A stretch of 64,000 nt of DNA from Escherichia phage naam: the sequence record MN850630.1; one strand, given 5' to 3'. Made by a program: the position numbers and the translations under genes. The notes below the pieces were generated by a model. That model was not told the origin of the DNA, did not search any database, and saw nothing but the letters and a program-made list of their open reading frames with translations. Each line of letters starts with the position of its first letter. Position 1 is the first letter of the stretch. Positions 3,998-56,375 of this stretch are shown in pieces.

Positions 3998-6775
3998 ATG
4001 AGCATGTGGTCGTTCGATTTTGAGTCATCCGGTTTGCTGGAAGACCCAGATCTTTATTATCACTGCGGCCTGTTTAAAGAGCTGAATAAGAACCGTTTTA
4101 TGCTGTTCCTTCCTCTGAATGACCGCACACACTACTCCGAGGAGGATATAGAGAAGGCCAAGAACTTTATTCTGGCAAAGAAAACTCTTTATAAGGATTT
4201 TGAAGTTCGCATAGCAGATTTTTCGGAGTTGGAAGGTTGGCTTACAGGAAATTCCGACTGGTCACCAACAGCTTTGAACTGCCATAACTGCTACAGTTAT
4301 GACTTTATGCTGATGGAGAGATTATCCGGTATTCATTTTGATATGTTCCGTGATCCTAAATGTATGGGGACTATCAACGACCACCAGGTTAACCTGTTTG
4401 ATACGTTGGCGATGAGCCGAATCTTGTGGCCTGATCGCCCTTTACCAAAAGGTTGTCCGGACTCCGTATTCAACCCGGTTACTAAGAAAATGCAGCCTGT
4501 TGGTCCTCACGGCCTTATGGCATGGGGCTACGCCCTTGGTAACCAGAAAGTTCAAATTGATGACTGGCGCGATCTTCCGTTGTGGAAGTATGTGGATCGT
4601 GTATTCGAGGACGTTATCATCCAGGAGCTACTCTGGAAAGAGCTGGTAGCGGAATCAAAAGGTGTATTCTACGGCAAATCTGACATGCAGAACTTTATGT
4701 ACGATCCTGCCAAAGAGAAGCCGAAAGGGTTCAAGAAGATCACCTGGAAGAACGCATTGCGCCGGGGTATGCTGCAACACTTCCTGATGGAGCTGCAGGC
4801 CCGTCAGGGTGTGTATTTTGACATAGATGGGGCTATTGCTTTACGTGACCGTTGCGATGCTTGGATGAAAGAAATCGCTGATCGTGTTGAACCACAACTA
4901 CCTTTAAAAGAGCTGTCAATGTCTCAGCGGCCCAAGTTCCCTGAAAAGCCGTTTAACCAAGATGGGACAATCTCCAATAATGGTTGGAAATGGTTAAAAG
5001 ATAAGCTTGGCTATCCTGTGGACATGAGTGCTTTAGAGTTCAAGGCCCCGCCTAAGCGAGCATTTACCTCTACAGGAGATGTCAGTAAGATGGGGATAAA
5101 ATGGTGTGAAGAGATGGGCTGCAAAGACCCAGATAAGATGGCTGATTTCTTGAGAGGCTATATTAAGGGCACCTCCACACCACAACCTTTGCCTAAAGAG
5201 CTAATGGATCAGGCAATAAGTGATCTACAGCAGAAGCGAATGCCGGACTGCAAGATACCTATGAAAATCAGCAACCAGGACGACATTAAGCGATACCTGA
5301 TCAGTGCTGGTTGGCTTCCGACAATGTGGAGAACTAAGGATGTAACTAAAGACAGCAAGAAGAAAGCTCTACCTGATGCAGATGTTGATGCACGAGTATA
5401 TGCATATATGGACGAGCTTTTAGAGTCAGAGTATTGTGACCTGATTATCAACTTCTGGAACAAAACTGATGCTAAGTTCCAGACAACCGTGCACAAGTTC
5501 CGAAGCTTTCCTAACTCCGAAAGGATTAAAAAGGAAGTATTCGGGAAAATACGTAGAAAAGCTAGGGCACTTATTACTTCTCCGCAACTGAAAGATACTT
5601 TTGGACACCTATGTCCAAATCTTGAAAAATTGAACGGAGAGATGGCTAAAGATATCGTCTTGTGGTTATCATTGCGAAACCGCAGATCGGTCCTTGATCC
5701 AATCAAGGAGGATAAGGTTGATACTGGTCTTCTTAATCACCCACGTTTGAAGATTGACCATAAGCTTCCTGCTAAAAGCTCTGGATTAACAAACACTTCC
5801 CGACAGAAACACAGTATTTGTGCAAACATGCCTAAACCATCTCCTAAAGTGGTTATGGGTAAAGAGATGCGTAGTCTGTGGGGTGTTCCTCCAGGATACT
5901 TTGAGATCGGTATTGACGGGTCCAACTTAGAGCAGCTTATCGGGGCTTGGGGTGCCTTTGAGTTCGACAACGGCTTGTATTATGATGTTGTAAGTAACGG
6001 AGACGCACACCAAAACAACGCCGAGGCATATACAAAAGTAGCAGGCAGAGAGGTATCTCGTAACGACGGTAAACCTATCACGTATGGGGTTATGTACGGG
6101 GCACAAAAAGACAAAGTTGCAGACATGCTGGATATCTCCCCAGAGTTGGGACAAAGGGTAATTGATGCACTTTGGGATGCCAACCCTGGTCTTAAGGGGC
6201 GTAAAGAAGATCTGGAGAAATTCTGGGAAGCAACGGGTAAGAAGTTTATCTACTCTTTTGATGGTCATGCTATCTGGACCCGATCTAAACACTCTTTACT
6301 TAATGCATACCAACAGAATGGTGGTGCATCGTTGTGTGACTTAGTTGGGATACTCATGCACCACCAAATGGTGAAGCGTGGGTGGTACGATGAAGGTGTT
6401 CGTCGTATTATTTATTACCATGACGAATATCAGCTTCAAGTCCCTGACACACCTAAGTATAAGACTGTGTACACCTTCGACACAATTGAAGAACTGGAAG
6501 CATTTAAGGCAGAGCAGGAGTCCAAACTTCATGTGTTCGACGGTCATAAGTACAAAAAGGCACGCAAGGATGAGGACGGAAACGAAGTGGTTGACAGAGA
6601 CGGAAACACGGTGTACGATCCTATCCTGAACGATGACGGAAAGCTTGAACTTATCTGGAGCCCTGTGGGTGAAATGGTGGTGCATTGCTTCTGGCAAGCT
6701 TCTAAAATGATGGGCGTCCCGTTTCAGATCACAGGTGAATACCTGTGTGGTCGTAATTGGGGTGATTGTCACTAA
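3998..6775 (+). CDS. DNA polymerase, family A, with 3'-5' exonuclease domain
   Basis: 925 aa; exo motif FDFESSG; PolA motif B K..YGVMYGAQ; motif C YYHDEYQL; AAGGAG RBS. Confidence 0.9.
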   Translation: MSMWSFDFESSGLLEDPDLYYHCGLFKELNKNRFMLFLPLNDRTHYSEEDIEKAKNFILAKKTLYKDFEVRIADFSELEGWLTGNSDWSPTALNCHNCYSYDFMLMERLSGIHFDMFRDPKCMGTINDHQVNLFDTLAMSRILWPDRPLPKGCPDSVFNPVTKKMQPVGPHGLMAWGYALGNQKVQIDDWRDLPLWKYVDRVFEDVIIQELLWKELVAESKGVFYGKSDMQNFMYDPAKEKPKGFKKITWKNALRRGMLQHFLMELQARQGVYFDIDGAIALRDRCDAWMKEIADRVEPQLPLKELSMSQRPKFPEKPFNQDGTISNNGWKWLKDKLGYPVDMSALEFKAPPKRAFTSTGDVSKMGIKWCEEMGCKDPDKMADFLRGYIKGTSTPQPLPKELMDQAISDLQQKRMPDCKIPMKISNQDDIKRYLISAGWLPTMWRTKDVTKDSKKKALPDADVDARVYAYMDELLESEYCDLIINFWNKTDAKFQTTVHKFRSFPNSERIKKEVFGKIRRKARALITSPQLKDTFGHLCPNLEKLNGEMAKDIVLWLSLRNRRSVLDPIKEDKVDTGLLNHPRLKIDHKLPAKSSGLTNTSRQKHSICANMPKPSPKVVMGKEMRSLWGVPPGYFEIGIDGSNLEQLIGAWGAFEFDNGLYYDVVSNGDAHQNNAEAYTKVAGREVSRNDGKPITYGVMYGAQKDKVADMLDISPELGQRVIDALWDANPGLKGRKEDLEKFWEATGKKFIYSFDGHAIWTRSKHSLLNAYQQNGGASLCDLVGILMHHQMVKRGWYDEGVRRIIYYHDEYQLQVPDTPKYKTVYTFDTIEELEAFKAEQESKLHVFDGHKYKKARKDEDGNEVVDRDGNTVYDPILNDDGKLELIWSPVGEMVVHCFWQASKMMGVPFQITGEYLCGRNWGDCH

Positions 6776-48245: not shown

Positions 48246-49334
48246 TTAAAACTCCCAAATTTCTTCTTCAGCGTCGTTAACAGTTGTGTTGACGCGGTAG
48301 TCAGTGTTCGACATTTCTTGGTTCGCCGTCTGTTGTAATGAAGGTTTCATCCACACCTGCATAAACGGTAGCGGGTCCTTTGTTGGCGGCACAAAGTCTT
48401 TGTCGATGTCGTAGTAATCATAAATCGGTGAGCAGTTATAGTCAACCCACTCTTTAAGCAACGGTGAGTTAAGACCTATAATCGCTCTTCCTTCGCTGAA
48501 AATATAGTCACTCCAACCGTACTCTTTGGTTCGTACTTCATCAAGAATCTCTTTTAACTCCCCTTTTATCTCCAGGAAGCTTTTCTCCCATGCGGGATCG
48601 TTAAGCAAGATATCAATGATGGCAAAATCACCTTTCGAATGTAGCATTTCGTCAAGCATGATTTTTTGAACAAGCTGCGCCACCTGAACAAAAATACCCT
48701 GTTCAGCTACTGCGAAAGTGCATGCAAAACTTGCAATAAACTCAATACTTTCTAGAGCTAAAAGTGCAAAAAGCGCTCTAAGAATGCATTTCCGCACAAT
48801 ATCTTCTTCAACACTAGAAGGATCCAGGCGGTATTTTGCACCAATAACCTCAAGCTCTTGCATGTATTTGACAATAACGCCGGATCTGCTCAGAACGTTT
48901 TGGTTTTCCTGAATCTCTTCTATAATCTCACGGGCATTGGGGAGGCATTGTCTAACAATCTCTGAGTAAGTTAGTGCGTGAAGAACTTCAATCTCTGACT
49001 GTTTCATCAATAGAGTGAAAAGCTCACTATTAGTGATGAATGGTGAAAAGAGGCAGATGATCGATCTTGCCGCAACGCTATCAGCCTCCCATTGCCACAT
49101 CAAGGTCTGCACCATCACGTCATAAGTTGACTTTGAGCATGTTACAAAATCTGAAATAGATTGCGACAAATCCACTTCATCCTCTGTCCAATCTTGCTCT
49201 TTTTGTTTTTTGTATAGTTCAAACAGTTGTGGATATTTTTTGTTGATAGAGTCGTACATACCCATTTGCTGTCCCAGAAACAACGGATAGTCACCAGTTT
49301 TATGAGCGGTGTTCTCAGCATTAAATACAGCCAT
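48246..49334 (-). CDS. nrdB: ribonucleotide reductase small subunit
   Basis: About 360 aa downstream of nrdA; ATG 49334 after GAGGT (longest frame overlaps nrdA). Confidence 0.75.
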   Translation of the reverse strand: MAVFNAENTAHKTGDYPLFLGQQMGMYDSINKKYPQLFELYKKQKEQDWTEDEVDLSQSISDFVTCSKSTYDVMVQTLMWQWEADSVAARSIICLFSPFITNSELFTLLMKQSEIEVLHALTYSEIVRQCLPNAREIIEEIQENQNVLSRSGVIVKYMQELEVIGAKYRLDPSSVEEDIVRKCILRALFALLALESIEFIASFACTFAVAEQGIFVQVAQLVQKIMLDEMLHSKGDFAIIDILLNDPAWEKSFLEIKGELKEILDEVRTKEYGWSDYIFSEGRAIIGLNSPLLKEWVDYNCSPIYDYYDIDKDFVPPTKDPLPFMQVWMKPSLQQTANQEMSNTDYRVNTTVNDAEEEIWEF

Positions 49335-49372: not shown

Positions 49373-51688
49373 TTATAGTGCACAGCTTTCGCAATACGGA
49401 TCTTCAACTGAACTATCTGCAATCAAAGGATAGTTCTTTCTGGTTTCATCTTCAGCCTGTTTCTTGGCATGAAGTTCCTCTGCCAAGGAGTCACCAGCAC
49501 CAACCCTGGAGTTTAAATAATACCATGTCTTCATCCCGAATTTAGTGGCACGGATAAGGTACCCTAGCTGCTCCTTCATTGAAATTTTACCATCTTTCAA
49601 CTTGGTGTAGTCTATGTATAAATCCGCGCTGATTGCCTGACCTGTGAATTTTTGAATCACAGCATACATATCGATCATGTCGTTAGTATCAACGTCCCAA
49701 GCCGAGGTGTAATACTCTTTCAACTCATCATAGTCAGGAACGATAAACAGCACCTGCCCTTGTGGCGACTTTTTAAAGATAATGTGCTCACGGACAGGAT
49801 AAACCCCGTTAGTGGTGTTTGTTGCCAGCGAAGAGCTTTCATTAGGCATATATGCTTCAAGAACGCTATTACGTAGCCCACCATTTTCAATGATTTCTTT
49901 ACGTAACCCTTCCCAATCCTGTTTAAGAGAAGGATCTTTCACCACGCTATCGACCTCTTTGTTATAGGTGTCGATTGGTAACCAACCTTCTGGATATTTT
50001 GTTTTATGCATCCACTCGCAGACACCACGCTCTTTTGCCAACCGTAAACTTGCCTTATGCAAGCTGTAGCTGTGAAGTTCTGCAAGATCGTGAACGAGCT
50101 GTTTACTCTCAGGAGATCCGTAAGTAACCTTGTGGCTGGCAATAAAATGTGCAACATTGGTAAGGCCAACCCCGATGGATCTGCGTTTTTTAACTGTGCT
50201 TTCCATATTTTCATACGGATATGTCATGATTTCCATAACATTGTCAATCATAAGCACCGTATAGTATGCAACATCCTCATACTCTTCTGGAGTAACCCTT
50301 CCGGCTACAAGAGATGACAGGAAGCACAATGCAACCTCTCCATCATCAGCATCGTACTTGAAGATATTACGCATATCTGAATAGCCTTTTGTCGGGAGGG
50401 CTATTTCTGCACACAGGTTACTTGAATAGATCACATCTTTAAAAGGTGTATGTCTATTCATCTCATCTGTCCAGTATACATACAGCCTTCCCACCTCAGT
50501 ACGCTGCGTGATCAGCTCAACAGCAAGATCTCTAGCTCGGATCCATGTTTTAGGAATACTGTCATCTTTAGCGATACGATCAACCTCTGCATCAAACTCC
50601 TCCATAGACATGGTGAAGATACCCTCATGTAGTTGAGGCGCGTGCTTATAAGAAACAAGCATCCAATCTAAATTCTTAGCCACACGGTTGATAAACGACC
50701 TATTAATACCGATGGAGTAGTCCATGGTGTTGATTCTTTTTGAAGCAACAGTCATAGGGTTTCTCAAACGGATTAGCTCATCAATCTGCGGGTCTAGTGC
50801 AAGGAATGATACTGTTGCAGAACCGCCACGTGATTGTTGTCTGTTCTCCTTAACCCCAGCATCAATACCTCGATAATATGGAATCTTACCCATGTGTTTA
50901 ATAGTGTTACCACGAACACCATCACCTGCAGATCTTGATGATAAATAGTAGCCGATACCCGCTTGGTTAACCGTCATTGTGTACGCAACTTCACGTGCCA
51001 CACCAATAGATTTTGCTGTATCGTCAGCTTTTATTACACAACAAGATGCATACCCTGTCTTACCTGTGCGCAGCCCGTTTAAGTACGGTGTCGGGGCATT
51101 GATCTTTAAGTCGGACAGATAAGTGTATAATTTTACAACATCGTTGATACGACGTTCTTTCGGCATATTCTTCATGACAGCCATTGCTATCCCCATAAAC
51201 ATCATCTGGGGAGATTCAAACAGGGTGTCTTTAAGAGTATCCTTGATCCCGTATTTGTCGCGAAACTGTTTAAGGACTGCATAGCCATAACCGAGATCTT
51301 TACTGTGGTCAATAACAGCGTCTAAAGTGTTTAGCTCGGTAAAGCTATAGCCCATATTCTCCCAATACCCTTTCTCAACCATGGTATTGTAAAATGATGG
51401 TAAGGAAGGGATCTTTGTAAACCCTCCAAAAGCCTCTTTATAAATCTGACCAATAAGAACACGACCAGCCATACGGGAATGTGCTTCGTCTTTACGGCTA
51501 ACACAGGAGTCTATGATAGCTTGGTTAACTTCTTTGGTTGTACATCCATCATACAGTCGTTTGTATGCATCCAGTGCAATGTGTGACCAATTGCCGTTAC
51601 CGTCGTCACCGAAAATAGCTGCCTTATTTAAACGTTCTGGATCGAATGCCACTTCACATCCGTTGCTTTTAATTACCTTGGTGATCAA
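49373..51688 (-). CDS. nrdA: ribonucleotide reductase large subunit, class Ia
   Basis: SNLCAEIALPT active-site motif, C-terminal CESCAL; 771 aa; TTG start after GGAGG. Confidence 0.9.
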   Translation of the reverse strand: MITKVIKSNGCEVAFDPERLNKAAIFGDDGNGNWSHIALDAYKRLYDGCTTKEVNQAIIDSCVSRKDEAHSRMAGRVLIGQIYKEAFGGFTKIPSLPSFYNTMVEKGYWENMGYSFTELNTLDAVIDHSKDLGYGYAVLKQFRDKYGIKDTLKDTLFESPQMMFMGIAMAVMKNMPKERRINDVVKLYTYLSDLKINAPTPYLNGLRTGKTGYASCCVIKADDTAKSIGVAREVAYTMTVNQAGIGYYLSSRSAGDGVRGNTIKHMGKIPYYRGIDAGVKENRQQSRGGSATVSFLALDPQIDELIRLRNPMTVASKRINTMDYSIGINRSFINRVAKNLDWMLVSYKHAPQLHEGIFTMSMEEFDAEVDRIAKDDSIPKTWIRARDLAVELITQRTEVGRLYVYWTDEMNRHTPFKDVIYSSNLCAEIALPTKGYSDMRNIFKYDADDGEVALCFLSSLVAGRVTPEEYEDVAYYTVLMIDNVMEIMTYPYENMESTVKKRRSIGVGLTNVAHFIASHKVTYGSPESKQLVHDLAELHSYSLHKASLRLAKERGVCEWMHKTKYPEGWLPIDTYNKEVDSVVKDPSLKQDWEGLRKEIIENGGLRNSVLEAYMPNESSSLATNTTNGVYPVREHIIFKKSPQGQVLFIVPDYDELKEYYTSAWDVDTNDMIDMYAVIQKFTGQAISADLYIDYTKLKDGKISMKEQLGYLIRATKFGMKTWYYLNSRVGAGDSLAEELHAKKQAEDETRKNYPLIADSSVEDPYCESCAL

Positions 51689-51915
51689 TTTGCTTCCTCC
51701 ACTTCATTAACGTATTTATCAAGGCAGGTATCAGTATCTTGCTGGATAAAGGTATCCTCTTCTACAGAGATATTTATAATTTTACCTGTATACTCGTCAT
51801 AATAAACATCATCATACATTTTAATATCGTTTGTCAGGCCGTTGAACCAAAGCCAACCAACATACTCTGCCCGACTTGCAAAACCAAGATCCTTCCACTT
51901 GGAGTTATGACTCAT
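51685..51915 (-). CDS. hypothetical protein
   Basis: ATG 51915 after AAGGTGG; longest frame 51993. Confidence 0.4.
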   Translation of the reverse strand: MSHNSKWKDLGFASRAEYVGWLWFNGLTNDIKMYDDVYYDEYTGKIINISVEEDTFIQQDTDTCLDKYVNEVEEAN

Positions 51916-51925
51916 CTTCACCACC

Positions 51926-52387
51926 TTAGCTTTCAATACCGAATAATTTTTCCAGGCGATGCAGATCTTCAAAATTAAAAGGTTCATCAACAATATGAAT
52001 ATCTTCAGCCTTTTCAGATTGTTTTGTATACTTTCTTACATTAACACGATCCTCTACAGGGATATCATACGGAAGATCTTGAACAAGCATTGCCTCACCG
52101 GGTGCTTTATCTACATCTAAAATATCTACACCGTTATACATTTGCGGGTATCTAAAGTCTGCACGCATGACACCAGCAAATACATCTGCCTTTCGATAAT
52201 GTGTTGGCTTATTTTTGCATCGAACGTTTTTTCCACGAAGAACATCAATACTTTTTAAATCAAACCCTACGGCAAAGAGTGCAGCTCGGAGACCGTTTCG
52301 TGTGCGAACGTTAAACCCGGGAACGGTAGATAGGAAATCCAAAGTAACTGAAATAAATGTCTTTTTAGGAATCATAACATTACTCAT
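51926..52387 (-). CDS. hypothetical protein
   Basis: ATG 52387 after GGAGAC, downstream of consensus promoter. Confidence 0.45.
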   Translation of the reverse strand: MSNVMIPKKTFISVTLDFLSTVPGFNVRTRNGLRAALFAVGFDLKSIDVLRGKNVRCKNKPTHYRKADVFAGVMRADFRYPQMYNGVDILDVDKAPGEAMLVQDLPYDIPVEDRVNVRKYTKQSEKAEDIHIVDEPFNFEDLHRLEKLFGIES

Positions 52388-52427
52388 ATCTGTCTCCATT
52401 TCTGGCCCACTAACAAAGTGAGCCATT

Positions 52428-52456
52428 ATTATAGATTATCTAATACTATTAGTCAA
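52428..52456 (-). promoter_or_regulatory. sigma70 consensus promoter (TTGACT-17-TATAAT)
   Basis: Hexamers on minus strand between ThyX-like and next gene. Confidence 0.6.
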
Positions 52457-52485
52457 CACAAAAATTACCTATCGCTGTGATAGGA

Positions 52486-53469
52486 TTAACCTTTCACGAA
52501 GTGGTTATTAAGCAGTTGTCTGTGCTGAACCCACCCACAAAAGTTGGCAGACCAGAATTTACCATCACGATCTTGATGGGTTACACCTTCCTGCCAAGTA
52601 CTGATGTCTTGTGTGATTTCACATGAAGACAGGTAGTAGTTTAAACGTTCCATTGCGTTATCGTGATCCATAGGTGTTGCCTGGTGCTCGTAAGGGCTTG
52701 CATGAATACGATCCCCACCAATCAATTTTTTAGCCACACTGTCTGCCTTTTCAAACGTGCTGTCAATATTTCGATAAGATACTTGTGCACAGCAACTAGC
52801 ACTGATAGACAGAGCTTCTTTAGTATCGAGAATGCAGAGCTTTCCTTCTGTGTCACGTACAGCGTAGTTAAACTCCCCGTCCAAATAAACGTGCTCTACA
52901 TATGGAGTGTGCCATTGACCCGGTTTAAGGATTTCAGGAGTGCTATTCACAAGAGCCTCCCACATACAATTAGCCAACATCTGAATCGTAGGATCCGCAT
53001 CGTGCCAGCAACGGAGGTGGAAAAAATTATTCCACTCGGTGCTTGTTACAACTGTTTTCATGCGTTGAAAAGGCTCCACTAAGCGGTTACATACTTGCTT
53101 ATGGTAACCAGCAAGGGCGAACTTCTCTGCATGCCAAGCGGCGTTTTTTGCAGCTTCTTTCCAAAATTCTTCAGGAGTTAACTCCATGTCAGTGTACTCT
53201 ACACGGATCTTTTGATCGTGTTCCCCACCATCTTCCATCCCTCGCTTATTTGCACCGAAGCGAACTGGCATTGCCGGATTCTCCACAATCTGTTGCAGCA
53301 TCTTGCCGACAGGAACTGCACGGGAAGACATGGCGTTTCGGCTGAATACTCGATGCGTCATAAGCTCTGAGTGAATAATTCGAGGATACTCTAGCTCAAA
53401 AGTGGTGATGCGCTTACCTTTCTCGGAAATGCTGTCAGCAATGATCTTTGCAGTGCACAGTTTTAGCAT
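52486..53469 (-). CDS. thyX: ThyX-like protein (putative flavin-dependent thymidylate synthase)
   Basis: THRVFSRNAMSSR resembles ThyX RHRx7S motif; nucleotide-metabolism neighbourhood. Confidence 0.55.
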   Translation of the reverse strand: MLKLCTAKIIADSISEKGKRITTFELEYPRIIHSELMTHRVFSRNAMSSRAVPVGKMLQQIVENPAMPVRFGANKRGMEDGGEHDQKIRVEYTDMELTPEEFWKEAAKNAAWHAEKFALAGYHKQVCNRLVEPFQRMKTVVTSTEWNNFFHLRCWHDADPTIQMLANCMWEALVNSTPEILKPGQWHTPYVEHVYLDGEFNYAVRDTEGKLCILDTKEALSISASCCAQVSYRNIDSTFEKADSVAKKLIGGDRIHASPYEHQATPMDHDNAMERLNYYLSSCEITQDISTWQEGVTHQDRDGKFWSANFCGWVQHRQLLNNHFVKG

Positions 53470-53669
53470 TATTTAGCTCTCCTTGTTTTAATTTTGGAAA
53501 TTTCGTCTGGGTTTATGTTGGCCTTAAATGCAAGGTATCTGTTGAACATATCGGAGCACATGTCTTGGGTGATCCTGGAGGCATACACCAGCTTACCTCC
53601 CAGATCATACACCTCTAGCCAGTCACCGTATCTGACTACAGGATCGCCACCTTTAGAACATCTGCCCAT
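53469..53669 (-). CDS. hypothetical protein
   Basis: 66 aa. Confidence 0.45.
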   Translation of the reverse strand: MGRCSKGGDPVVRYGDWLEVYDLGGKLVYASRITQDMCSDMFNRYLAFKANINPDEISKIKTRRAK

Positions 53670-53670
53670 T

Positions 53671-54264
53671 TCAAATACCTTCTAAAAACTTTCCTATTTT
53701 ATACCAGCTATTAGCGGTATAGTCAACACTGACCTTTAACTCCTCGAATTGCTCATAAGGCGTATCTTTTAGGATTTTAATAACTTCAGGTCGTGAAGCG
53801 AATTGGTTCAGGTATTCATGCCTGTCGTCAATTATAACATCTACAGCCACATTTCCTTTGAAATGTGTGGCGTAGAAGCCGTGACCCTGGGTGTGATCGT
53901 CCAGATCCATAAAATCACTGGTCCAACGCTTTAAGAACCTTGATTTAGATGCAAGGTGACCTTTCTTGCATACCGAGATAAATGCAAGCTTGTGACCACG
54001 AGCCACCAAATCTTTCATAACCTCAATAGCCCCCTCTTCGGGCTTAAGAAAGTCGTAGAGGAACGGGTCACTCCAGAAATCAAAAGGCCCTATGATGTTT
54101 TCTTTGGGGCGATCAGGCCAATACTTTGACAGATCGTAATACATTAACCCATTAGAAGGTTTAGTGACTGTCTTACTGGCTGGACCATACAAACGCTCCA
54201 ACCACTCCCACCATGCTGTTCCTGAATCTACCAGTGTCAGATCTACATCAATTCCGATTAACAT
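53671..54264 (-). CDS. HAD-family phosphatase (putative 5'-deoxynucleotidase)
   Basis: N-terminal IGIDVDLTLVD (DxDxT HAD motif I). Confidence 0.55.
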   Translation of the reverse strand: MLIGIDVDLTLVDSGTAWWEWLERLYGPASKTVTKPSNGLMYYDLSKYWPDRPKENIIGPFDFWSDPFLYDFLKPEEGAIEVMKDLVARGHKLAFISVCKKGHLASKSRFLKRWTSDFMDLDDHTQGHGFYATHFKGNVAVDVIIDDRHEYLNQFASRPEVIKILKDTPYEQFEELKVSVDYTANSWYKIGKFLEGI

Positions 54265-54875
54265 TCTTCTTGGGCCTCTTTAGCATCAATATACTTGCAC
54301 ACAATCTCCGATGCACACTCCCAAGGTGCACCTTCAGGGTTTACAACATCAAACTCAACCCCTTTTATTCCGTTCTTTTCCAGACTTAGATAGGTTCTGG
54401 AATCATTTCCCCAGTCATATCCGACACGGTGAATACGGAACAACAACAGATCTCCACCTGTGCTGTATGCGTACTCACTAAGGCATGCCAGCTCCTCTTT
54501 GAATCCACCATCGGAGTAAACAACAACCCCTTTACCTTTAGGGAAATCTTTCTTCAAGGATGTGACTGCGGCCTTACCGAAAGCATCTTCACCAAAGATA
54601 GGTTTAATCAGATTTTCACTACAATGGATCATCCATTCTCGCGGAGAAACATGCTTGCCGTCTATCATTAAGAAAGGGCAAGGCTCTTCTTTGTAGTGGC
54701 GGTCATAAAGTGCATTCCAGAGTTGAGGAGTTACACCAGCTGCCTTAATTGCCACGCTGAAGAGCATCTCCTTAACCTCGCGGTGGTGTGAGTTAGGAAT
54801 AGCTTCCAACAAGAGATCTGCAATGTGATCCTTACCACTGCTGGGTGGGGCGTTAAGAACAATAATATCCATCAA
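54258..54875 (-). CDS. P-loop kinase-like protein (putative dNMP kinase)
   Basis: N-terminal LNAPPSSGKDHIADLL P-loop-like motif. Confidence 0.45.
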   Translation of the reverse strand: MMDIIVLNAPPSSGKDHIADLLLEAIPNSHHREVKEMLFSVAIKAAGVTPQLWNALYDRHYKEEPCPFLMIDGKHVSPREWMIHCSENLIKPIFGEDAFGKAAVTSLKKDFPKGKGVVVYSDGGFKEELACLSEYAYSTGGDLLLFRIHRVGYDWGNDSRTYLSLEKNGIKGVEFDVVNPEGAPWECASEIVCKYIDAKEAQEEC

Positions 54876-55075
54876 AAACCTCCGTGGTATTCTTCAACTG
54901 CATCAATAATACTTTTACACTTATCTACCAGCTCGTTAGCCACTACAGCATCGTCCTCCCAAACAGCTTCCTCAATCTGATCAAGCAATGATCGCATCTT
55001 ACCCATCATTTCTGGGATAAAGTTTTCTGAAAAACTGTCTGGAATTGTTAACTTTAGTGTCATTGTGGTCTCCAA
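54872..55075 (-). CDS. hypothetical acidic protein
   Basis: 67 aa. Confidence 0.45.
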   Translation of the reverse strand: METTMTLKLTIPDSFSENFIPEMMGKMRSLLDQIEEAVWEDDAVVANELVDKCKSIIDAVEEYHGGF

Positions 55076-55090
55076 TCATACCATGCGTTA

Positions 55091-55549
55091 TTAGAAGTTT
55101 GTTTTTACACGTCCCTTTTCATCAACTTCGTTGTTAGCTAAAAGCGTTACAAAGTCTGTGAAACGGACATGAAGAACTCTTTTCTTATCAAGGTATCCTA
55201 AAGCCACCCCTGAGAAATTTAGCATCAAAGGGGCTAAAGAAGCTCTAGCACTGAAATGCTGTTGTTCTACCCTTCCAACACCCTTAGTATAGGATGGGTT
55301 GAGATTGTAAGTTCTGAATCCAAGTTTTGTTGGGGCTTTAGAATTAAAAACAACTTTGTAGCGTTTCTTACTCAACTTATGCTCCAGGATAAGTATTCCC
55401 TTATCGCCCTTGATAAGTTGAAAATCTGTAAAGTGCTCTTTTAAGACGAAAGGTAGTGCCAGTCCCATTGCCTGCCCCCTTTGTACCGCTGTCTCACCAA
55501 AAGCTTTCGCATCAGTGAGTTCTTTGGTCAAGTCTATGCTTTTGATCAT
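55091..55549 (-). CDS. hypothetical protein
   Basis: 152 aa. Confidence 0.5.
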   Translation of the reverse strand: MIKSIDLTKELTDAKAFGETAVQRGQAMGLALPFVLKEHFTDFQLIKGDKGILILEHKLSKKRYKVVFNSKAPTKLGFRTYNLNPSYTKGVGRVEQQHFSARASLAPLMLNFSGVALGYLDKKRVLHVRFTDFVTLLANNEVDEKGRVKTNF

Positions 55550-56360
55550 ACCTGGTCTCCAAAATGTATTGTAGTTCTTTCTTACCTATACTCTTCATTC
55601 CGGCAGTCTTACCTGCTTCTTCTTGAAAAGAAGAATAGCATTCAGCAAACACTCTGTCAACACCGTCAACTAAAGATTTTATGAAATATGTCGATTCTTC
55701 AGATTTTGGGTCATCATCCTCCAATACTTTTCCAGCATTATACCCAACACGTCTTACACAGAAGTCGTAGTCATCTGGAGTGCTAAAAGAAAATAACTTA
55801 TTCTCTCCAATCTCTACAGGATCCCTATTACACGCCTTTTTCTCCCAAATTTGGAAAACACACGGCACGTCATAAGGTTTGCCATTAAGTAAAAACGAAT
55901 TCTTAGGGCACCTTTCGCTGTAGACAAGGTGCATCGACATGTCCAATTTGTTTGCAAAAAATATTTTTTCAAATGTCCGTGGCAAGATGAAGGCTATGGC
56001 CCCTCCAAGCTCTAGCAATGATGCACAATGGTTGAAGAATTTGCAAGCTAGAGATGAATTCTTGCCAAATGGTGGGTTACCTATGAAGACATCTGCCTTG
56101 GGGTGCACCTCCAAGAAGTTTGCCTGAATGCACGGTGTTGGCCCTTCAAATTCAGGATCTGGTACTAAATCGTACGACAGTATCTCTGAAAATAGTTTTG
56201 AAAAAGAACCCCTCCCAGCAGAGGGCTCAACGTATGCACAATTCCCATAGTTATCTTTTACTTTACCAACAAGATATTCTGCATACTCAGGGTTTGTGTA
56301 ATATTTGTCGTTGGACTCTTTCTTGCTCAAAGTGCCTCCAAAAGGAAAAGGGAGGCGCAA
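55512..56360 (-). CDS. DNA amino-methyltransferase (N6-adenine or N4-cytosine)
   Basis: Motif I EPSAGRGSF, motif IV GNPPFG, N-terminal YYTNPE. Confidence 0.55.
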   Translation of the reverse strand: MRLPFPFGGTLSKKESNDKYYTNPEYAEYLVGKVKDNYGNCAYVEPSAGRGSFSKLFSEILSYDLVPDPEFEGPTPCIQANFLEVHPKADVFIGNPPFGKNSSLACKFFNHCASLLELGGAIAFILPRTFEKIFFANKLDMSMHLVYSERCPKNSFLLNGKPYDVPCVFQIWEKKACNRDPVEIGENKLFSFSTPDDYDFCVRRVGYNAGKVLEDDDPKSEESTYFIKSLVDGVDRVFAECYSSFQEEAGKTAGMKSIGKKELQYILETRYDQKHRLDQRTH

Positions 56361-56375
56361 GCCTCCCTATAATTG

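Follow-up and report, generated by a model that had tools for sequence, protein, structure and literature searches.

The question raised by one locus of Escherichia phage naam (MN850630.1) is whether its thymidylate synthase-like enzyme makes ordinary thymidylate (dTMP) or something else, and whether the gene that follows it belongs to the same pathway. Within the 64,000-nucleotide stretch of DNA that was analysed, called the window below, a gene for a 327-residue protein resembling the flavin-dependent thymidylate synthase ThyX (52486..53469, minus strand) precedes a gene for a 153-residue protein (51926..52387, minus strand), named gp107 here after its counterpart in phage rV5. A preliminary description had proposed that an unusual synthase beside a kinase and a nucleotidase could indicate the synthesis of a modified pyrimidine, and had assigned the smaller gene a promoter of its own. 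The reading put forward here, which we consider probable, is that the enzyme is a rearranged ThyX producing ordinary dTMP, and that the promoter heads a transcript carrying gp107, gp108 and the ribonucleotide reductase (RNR) genes nrdA and nrdB.

Canonical ThyX is a homotetramer with bound flavin adenine dinucleotide (FAD), which converts deoxyuridine monophosphate (dUMP) to dTMP by means of methylenetetrahydrofolate (CH2-THF) and NAD(P)H. The phage protein is matched by the Pfam profile Thy1 (PF02511) with 37.3 bits, above the gathering cut-off of 24.8, and by phrog_85 of the PHROG collection, annotated as 'thymidylate synthase', at 7e-113. The Thy1 alignment is partial, as it places profile positions 60–190 of 191 on residues 23–178. 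Structure prediction, which the preliminary description had proposed for both proteins, gives an AlphaFold2 model with a predicted local distance difference test (pLDDT) score of 83.5 that has the ThyX fold. A search of the single sequence against the PDB returned no matches, and ThyX matches in a profile search against the PDB were marginal (E 0.5–1.6). The protein is, as had been remarked, longer than the solved ThyX chains (191–270 residues), and many phage 'thymidylate synthase' entries in BFVD also have 300–350 residues; length by itself is not unusual.

The ThyX-like motif is present, as had been described, in the form THRVFSRNAMSSR, which the translation places at residues 38–50 (53320..53358, minus strand). 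It departs from the canonical signature RHRxxSxNxxSxR in that the H, R, S, N, S and R are retained and the first R is replaced by T. More than 7,500 clusters match the protein, the best matches with a named source being large phages of Klebsiella, Salmonella and Erwinia, and in an alignment of 30 relatives at 51–82% identity the first-position T is invariant, together with H39, R40, N45, S48 and R50. A regular-expression search places the signature near residue 38 in 29 of these 30. The R-to-T change, already recorded in the preliminary description, is a family trait and not a local mutation.

The individual positions were followed in Thermotoga maritima numbering on a residue map that combines HMMER and hhalign alignments; the T. 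maritima ThyX sequence used was confirmed over most of its length. HMMER aligns THRVFSRNAMSSR to T. maritima residues 78–90, and the equivalents H79=H39, R80=R40, S83=S43, N85=N45, S88=S48, R90=R50, R147=R129, N169=N148, L173=L152 and R174=R153 are conserved, most of the mapped set being invariant in the family. Among them are the equivalents of R90 and R174, which we take to be the arginines that recognise uracil. The S..S.R element, the equivalents of R147, N169 and R174 and the HxSPxEH segment are all shared with canonical ThyX (T. maritima TM0449, PBCV-1 A674R and Mycobacterium tuberculosis ThyX).

The order of these elements is where the phage protein differs most from its canonical relatives. 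Canonical ThyX begins with a module of strand beta-1, the AARVS helix and a helix ending in GHxSPxEH, which binds flavin and folate. This module has about 60 residues and cannot fit in the 22 residues ahead of the aligned core, so that the AARVS helix and HxSPxEH do not precede the signature in the phage protein. Profile positions 1–59, absent from the N-terminus, are found instead at residues 195–266 (52672..52887, minus strand), where hhalign recognises a beta hairpin, 'SCCAQVSY' resembling AARVSF, and 'IHASPYEH' resembling GHETPFEH. Within the segments 'SASCCAQVSYR' and 'IHASPYEH' of this C-terminal half, S231, H256, S258, P259, E261 and H262 are invariant. The translation and a regular-expression search place HASPYEH at residues 256–262 (52684..52704, minus strand), the equivalent of T. 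maritima H53–H59 on the flavin/folate side of the active site. Each of the 30 relatives has a single H.[ST]P.EH pattern, at residues 253–280 and downstream of the signature, reversing the canonical order.

When the sub-alignment of residues 195–327 was compared by hhalign, profile to profile, with the first 66 residues of three canonical ThyX proteins, HASPYEH was matched to HETPFEH with a score of 23.1, against a mean of 10.4 (standard deviation 2.0, maximum 17.3) in 200 column shuffles. In a global hhalign alignment, residues 195–266 are matched to three segments of the T. maritima protein: beta-1, AARVSF and GHETPFEH. The C-terminal halves of four relatives, scanned alone against Pfam, gave no Thy1 match, so that the relocation claim rests on the profile–profile comparison and the invariant motif. 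About 60 further residues follow the relocated module as a tail that is also additional to canonical ThyX (about 190–270 residues). This short, highly conserved motif is our basis for regarding the protein as a ThyX with swapped segments, akin to a circular permutation. Residues 187–323 also align to T. maritima 7–178 with about 2% probability in hhalign, and it can be suggested, as a suggestion only, that the entire C-terminal half is a degenerate partial second ThyX copy. No account of such a permuted arrangement was found in the literature; the module relocation is an addition of this analysis, and the architecture it describes is an undescribed and uncharacterised one for ThyX.

What the enzyme makes is best approached through the position that its gene occupies in related phages. 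The gp107 family was traced into 17 further loci, and the block consisting of NT5C nucleotidase, thymidylate synthase slot, gp107 homolog, gp108 homolog and RNR persists at identities as low as about 33%. The slot is filled by the long ThyX-like gene in the window, L002, L007–L010, L015 and L017, and by a 236-residue canonical ThyX in L012–L014, which matches Thy1 over its full length with 144.7 bits, the NCBIfam equivalog TIGR02170 with 126.4 bits against a cut-off of 87.9, and PDB 6j61 at E 6.5e-24. In L016 and L018 (Aeromonas phage vB_AdhM_TS9) it holds ThyA, above the TIGR03284 cut-off, together with dihydrofolate reductase (DHFR), and in L003–L006 and L011 it is empty. The slot, which has the nucleotidase on one side and the gp107 homolog on the other, lies at 4783–5493 in L012, 4866–5819 in L015, 3493–4898 in L016, 3492–4906 in L018 and 5846–6001 in L003. 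L015 and L012 are 94–95% identical on both flanks and are set apart by a clean exchange of cassettes, the long ThyX-like gene for the 236-residue ThyX; the long form thus shares with canonical ThyX its role among nucleotide genes and is interchangeable with it in situ. DHFR occurs only with the ThyA version of the slot, as expected if ThyX-type enzymes yield tetrahydrofolate and not dihydrofolate. The pattern is that expected of interchangeable dTMP synthases, and the slot is a clean natural case of non-orthologous displacement in situ. A 107-residue open reading frame (ORF) beside the canonical ThyX of L012 was considered as a counterpart of the extra C-terminal part of the long protein, but a comparison of the two showed no similarity.

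The nucleotide block of the related phages is also rich in mobile endonuclease genes (L003:6747–9878, L011:7478–10859, L012:3421–4344 and L018:5575–6618). HNH-type ORFs interrupt nrdD there, and genes of the CapR/T5orf172 type stand as insertions beside the slot or after the gp107 homolog.

A close parallel to such a block is that of phage T5, which comprises the dmp 5'-deoxyribonucleotidase, a deoxynucleoside monophosphate (dNMP) kinase, ThyA, DHFR and NrdAB, and whose DNA is canonical. Both phages combine a nucleotidase, a broad dNMP kinase, a thymidylate synthase and an RNR; T5 has ThyA with DHFR, like L016 and L018, whereas the present phage has a ThyX-type enzyme and no DHFR in the block.

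The current model proposes that the product of 52486..53469 is a flavin-dependent thymidylate synthase of the ThyX superfamily, which would represent a widespread phage subfamily of rearranged architecture. Its catalytic core would come first, running from the strand before the motif through T-H-R...S..S.R to the equivalents of R147, N169 and R174, and the module with the AARVS helix and HxSPxEH, predicted to bind flavin and folate, would follow in the C-terminal half. The enzyme would most likely convert dUMP to ordinary dTMP by means of CH2-THF, FAD and NAD(P)H. Alongside the phage nucleotidase, the dNMP kinase and the class I and class III RNRs, it would supply the replication of unmodified DNA.

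The second part of the model concerns the transcript that begins downstream of the ThyX-like gene. A sigma-70-type promoter, TTGACT-17-TATAAT, lies at 52428..52456 on the minus strand and agrees with the consensus at 11 of 12 positions; it ranks first in a scan of 9.5 kb, where weaker matches are together no more frequent than chance would give. It corresponds to P107 of rV5, TTGACTAATAGTATCAGATAATCTATAAT, one of 33 promoters predicted in that phage (PMC3606486). All 14 viral loci, drawn from about six lineages, have a promoter-like site with at least 10 of 12 consensus positions in the 200 nt ahead of the gp107 homolog, and as matches of this quality number about four per 19 kb of scanned strand in the window, such positional conservation is far beyond chance. 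Directly after the stop of the ThyX-like gene there is a weak terminator-like hairpin with a T-run (52458..52484, minus strand; hairpin 52468..52484), with a folding energy of -9.9 kcal/mol and a z-score of -3.2; the supplementary files of rV5, among them the terminator table, do not list it.

Downstream of the promoter the genes are closely packed. A Shine-Dalgarno sequence, GGAG (52394..52397, minus strand), stands six nt before the ATG of gp107 at 52387. The gp108 homolog (76 residues, DUF8047-like; 51685..51915, minus strand) starts 10 nt past the gp107 stop with its own Shine-Dalgarno sequence, and its stop is overlapped by the TTG start of nrdA, the large subunit of the class Ia RNR (49373..51688, minus strand; assigned from the ORF list and the annotation of relatives). 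This is followed by nrdB, the small subunit (48246..49334, minus strand), whose 362-residue start is taken from relatives. These tight junctions make the promoter best read as the head of a gp107-gp108-nrdA-nrdB operon. According to this, a host-type promoter (52456..52428) would start a transcript near the predicted position 52421, after the weak hairpin, and the transcript would carry gp107 (153 residues), gp108 (76 residues), nrdA and nrdB. The promoter sequence noted in the preliminary description is confirmed, but it is better seen as the head of this operon than as private to the 153-residue gene.

The ORF list gives gp107 as 166 residues from an ATG at 52426; the 153-residue start at 52387 is preferred since GGAG stands six nt upstream of it, the homologs start with MS(D/K), and the -10 hexamer abuts the ATG at 52426. 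The protein belongs to phrog_5557, a PHROG without assigned function, and to a small family (22 clusters at 50% identity, 118 at 90%) whose members are all hypothetical and whose contigs, where long ones were recovered, reach about 148 kb. The earlier statement that it carries no recognisable motif agrees with the searches: no relative was found in Pfam, in NCBIfam or in a PDB profile search, an exhaustive and a second profile search matched only hypothetical proteins of similar phages, and its AlphaFold2 model is poor (pLDDT 56) and shows no detectable fold. The family does have conserved motifs of its own, namely ISVTLDFL, AALYAVGF, VNVRC..PY.YRKT, DLPYD.PV and NTRKYTK. One gp107 homolog (JLBYU08_22, L001 6327–6827, OK272482) is labelled 'putative thymidylate synthase', which no search supports and which is probably annotation spill-over from the neighbouring gene. 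As for gp108, which is acidic, it is 38–49% identical to homologs in L016–L018 that have precomputed matches to PF26220 (DUF8047).

The gp107-gp108 pair persists without a thymidylate synthase, and also where nrdD replaces nrdAB, which points to an association with RNR and not with ThyX. At every locus examined, a gp108 homolog follows the gp107 homolog and directly precedes nrdA or nrdD, and this order is kept to about 33% identity, including lineages without nrdAB. An accessory or regulatory role of both proteins in RNR function or in the supply of deoxynucleoside triphosphates (dNTPs) may be put forward as a weak guess. It has a strong competitor, with somewhat less than an even chance of being correct, in the proposal that gp107 and gp108 are early host-takeover or anti-defence genes which merely share the RNR promoter. 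No family, fold or motif ties either protein to nucleotide enzymes, the pair is retained in loci that lack a thymidylate synthase, and HNH, CapR/T5orf172 and Dam-like methylase genes insert freely between the pair and nrd in relatives, so that tight coupling is not required. The invariable gene order, with gp108 homologs always directly ahead of an RNR gene, argues against it. A generic early gene pair and an RNR accessory role are about equally likely for gp107 and gp108.

Returning to the enzyme, several findings weigh against its being a rearranged ThyX that makes dTMP. The match to the NCBIfam thyX equivalog TIGR02170 reaches 39.6 bits, below the cut-off of 87.9. Six positions are replaced and fixed in the family (R78->T38, E86->A46, Y91->A51, Q75->E35, R74->S34 and H178->D157, the motif reading T-H-R and not R-H-R), all of which are presumably FAD or dUMP contacts in T. 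maritima ThyX. The relocation of the module depends on a short motif match, at z of about 6, and on an extended alignment of low probability, and AlphaFold2 confidence is lowest in precisely this region (pLDDT 57–69). Finally, no biochemical report was found in the literature for any member of the long ThyX-like subfamily.

These departures could be accounted for if the protein were an altered or inactive ThyX relic, kept for nucleotide binding or as a scaffold for dNTP synthesis, or if it methylated a substrate other than dUMP in the manner of PolB, and this explanation we regard as improbable. PolB, which methylates UMP and dUMP at C5 in the polyoxin pathway (PDB 4p5a), keeps the canonical order of domains and is encoded in an antibiotic gene cluster, whereas the phage gene stands in a context of dNTP supply and in a slot shared with true thymidylate synthases. 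About 80 columns are invariant among relatives of 51–82% identity, nearly all of the mapped catalytic positions among them, which speaks against a relic, as do the more than 7,500 homologs present in large lytic phages. The replacement of the gene in its slot by bona fide thymidylate synthases points to dTMP synthesis.

Less likely still, and in our view very unlikely, is the proposal, which makes the idea of the preliminary description explicit, that the ThyX-like enzyme makes a modified pyrimidine such as 5-hydroxymethyl-dUMP or methylated dCMP, which the kinase phosphorylates and which ends as a non-canonical base in the virion. The invariant departures of the motif and of several ligand-contact positions from characterised ThyX, the score below the equivalog cut-off, and the adjacent dNMP kinase and nucleotidase would agree with such a product. 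In addition, the exocyclic methylene intermediate of ThyX is trappable in principle (PMC8989533). The arrangement also resembles, in having a C5-transferring enzyme beside a dNMP kinase, that of T4, with the gp42 dCMP hydroxymethylase and the gp1 kinase, and those of SPO1, ViI and M6, with dUMP hydroxymethylases. The enzymes of these phages, however, are members of the ThyA and not the ThyX family, as is every pre-replicative pyrimidine hydroxymethylase known (PMC8989533); other modification or exclusion genes go with them, and the DNA of the phages resists restriction-modification (RM) systems, none of which holds here. No PF00303 (ThyA-family) match was found among nine proteins scanned from 51685 to 56360, and in a close relative the annotated ±6 kb shows no 5-hydroxymethyldeoxyuridine DNA kinase, aGPT-Pplase, glycosyltransferase or other post-replicative modification gene. 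The kinase belongs to an ordinary dNMP kinase family (phrog_139), and the equivalents of the presumed uracil-recognising R90 and R174 are conserved.

The published behaviour of these phages towards restriction points the same way. Vequintavirinae are reported to be exceptionally sensitive to RM systems of types I, II and III, without 'any effective protection' (PMC8594841), and XbaI cuts rV5 DNA (PMC3606486). Sensitivity of this kind is compatible with a subtle or partial base change and does not exclude one, which limits its weight in favour of unmodified DNA; no report of modified bases or of nucleoside analysis was found in the literature for Vequintavirus. There is no support for a modified pyrimidine, because the slot, which in related phages holds an equivalog-level ThyX or ThyA with DHFR, and the RM and XbaI phenotypes contradict it. 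That the T-H-R subfamily releases some other C5-substituted pyrimidine or acts partially, giving a subtle base change unnoticed by RM systems, with gp107 and gp108 as dedicated partners, is the least likely proposal of all.

With the rearranged, dTMP-producing ThyX as the preferred reading, the genes around it fall into a familiar layout. The region 51600–54900 of the window is 95–99.5% identical to 120 phage records, nearly all of them Escherichia Vequintavirus (rV5-like myoviruses), with at least 80% of the query covered in 117, and the window is an rV5-like (Vequintavirus) genome. Three GenBank records that lack annotation, Campylobacter phage C7, C9 and A112b, match the DNA most closely (99.5%); their host label looks doubtful amid some 100 E. 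coli Vequintavirus genomes. Every gene of the region lies on the minus strand. The annotated relative JLBYU08 has, in transcription order, a dNMP kinase, a 5'(3')-deoxyribonucleotidase, a 66-residue ORF, an FAD-dependent thymidylate synthase and the gp107 homolog, and then the gp108 homolog, nrdA, nrdB, glutaredoxin, nrdD and nrdG.

In the window, the kinase and the nucleotidase are present as the preliminary description had reported: a P-loop dNMP kinase at 54258..54872 (phrog_139, 1.1e-44, and annotation of relatives) and an NT5C/HAD-type 5'(3')-deoxyribonucleotidase at 53671..54264 (Pfam NT5C, 27.3 bits against a cut-off of 24.8; rV5 gp104). Next comes a 66-residue gp105 homolog without assigned function (53469..53669), whose stop overlaps the ATG of the ThyX-like gene in the sequence TAATG (53466–53472), an overlap that suggests translational coupling of the two; gp105 homologs are retained in phages with no thymidylate synthase in the slot. 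The ThyX-like gene itself, assigned from the ORF list and its Thy1 and phrog_85 matches, is the ortholog of rV5 gp106, described in 2013 as 'thymidylate synthase, 327 aa, PF02511' with the Vibrio phage ICP1 thymidylate synthase as best match, and the same report lists gp107, of 153 residues and without homolog, and gp108, of 76 residues (PMC3606486). These ORFs and the promoter had already been published for rV5, and the preliminary observation is accurate but not new. Nothing relevant on the biochemistry of the ICP1 thymidylate synthase was found in the literature.

Further upstream, the ORF at 55512–56360 (minus strand), which overlaps the adjoining ORF 55091–55549 by 38 nt, encodes a 282-residue protein that contains an NPPF motif (FIGNPPFG), matches Eco57I/MTS profiles of Pfam weakly and has relatives annotated as S-adenosylmethionine-dependent methyltransferases; it is likely an orphan N6-adenine DNA methyltransferase. 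In L012, L016 and L018 a similar methylase separates the gp107 homolog from the gp108 homolog. Between the methyltransferase gene and an exonuclease-like gene there is a perfect 8-bp GC-rich hairpin, AGGGAGGC-TTGC-GCCTCCCT (56349–56368), with a terminator-like score on both strands.

For the phage, the finding is routine, as it adds one more way to secure dTMP and dNTPs during infection. The enzymological interest lies in a 'thymidylate synthase' subfamily of more than 7,500 clusters with a non-canonical domain order and an altered signature. Since three subunits contribute to each ThyX active site, the relocated flavin/folate module could alter the assembly of the enzyme or its sensitivity to ThyX inhibitors. 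The pair of gp107 and the DUF8047-like gp108 ahead of the RNR genes offers a small lead to RNR-associated factors. Most likely, then, these are ordinary nucleotide-supply genes, among which an undescribed architectural variant of ThyX is a modest curiosity.

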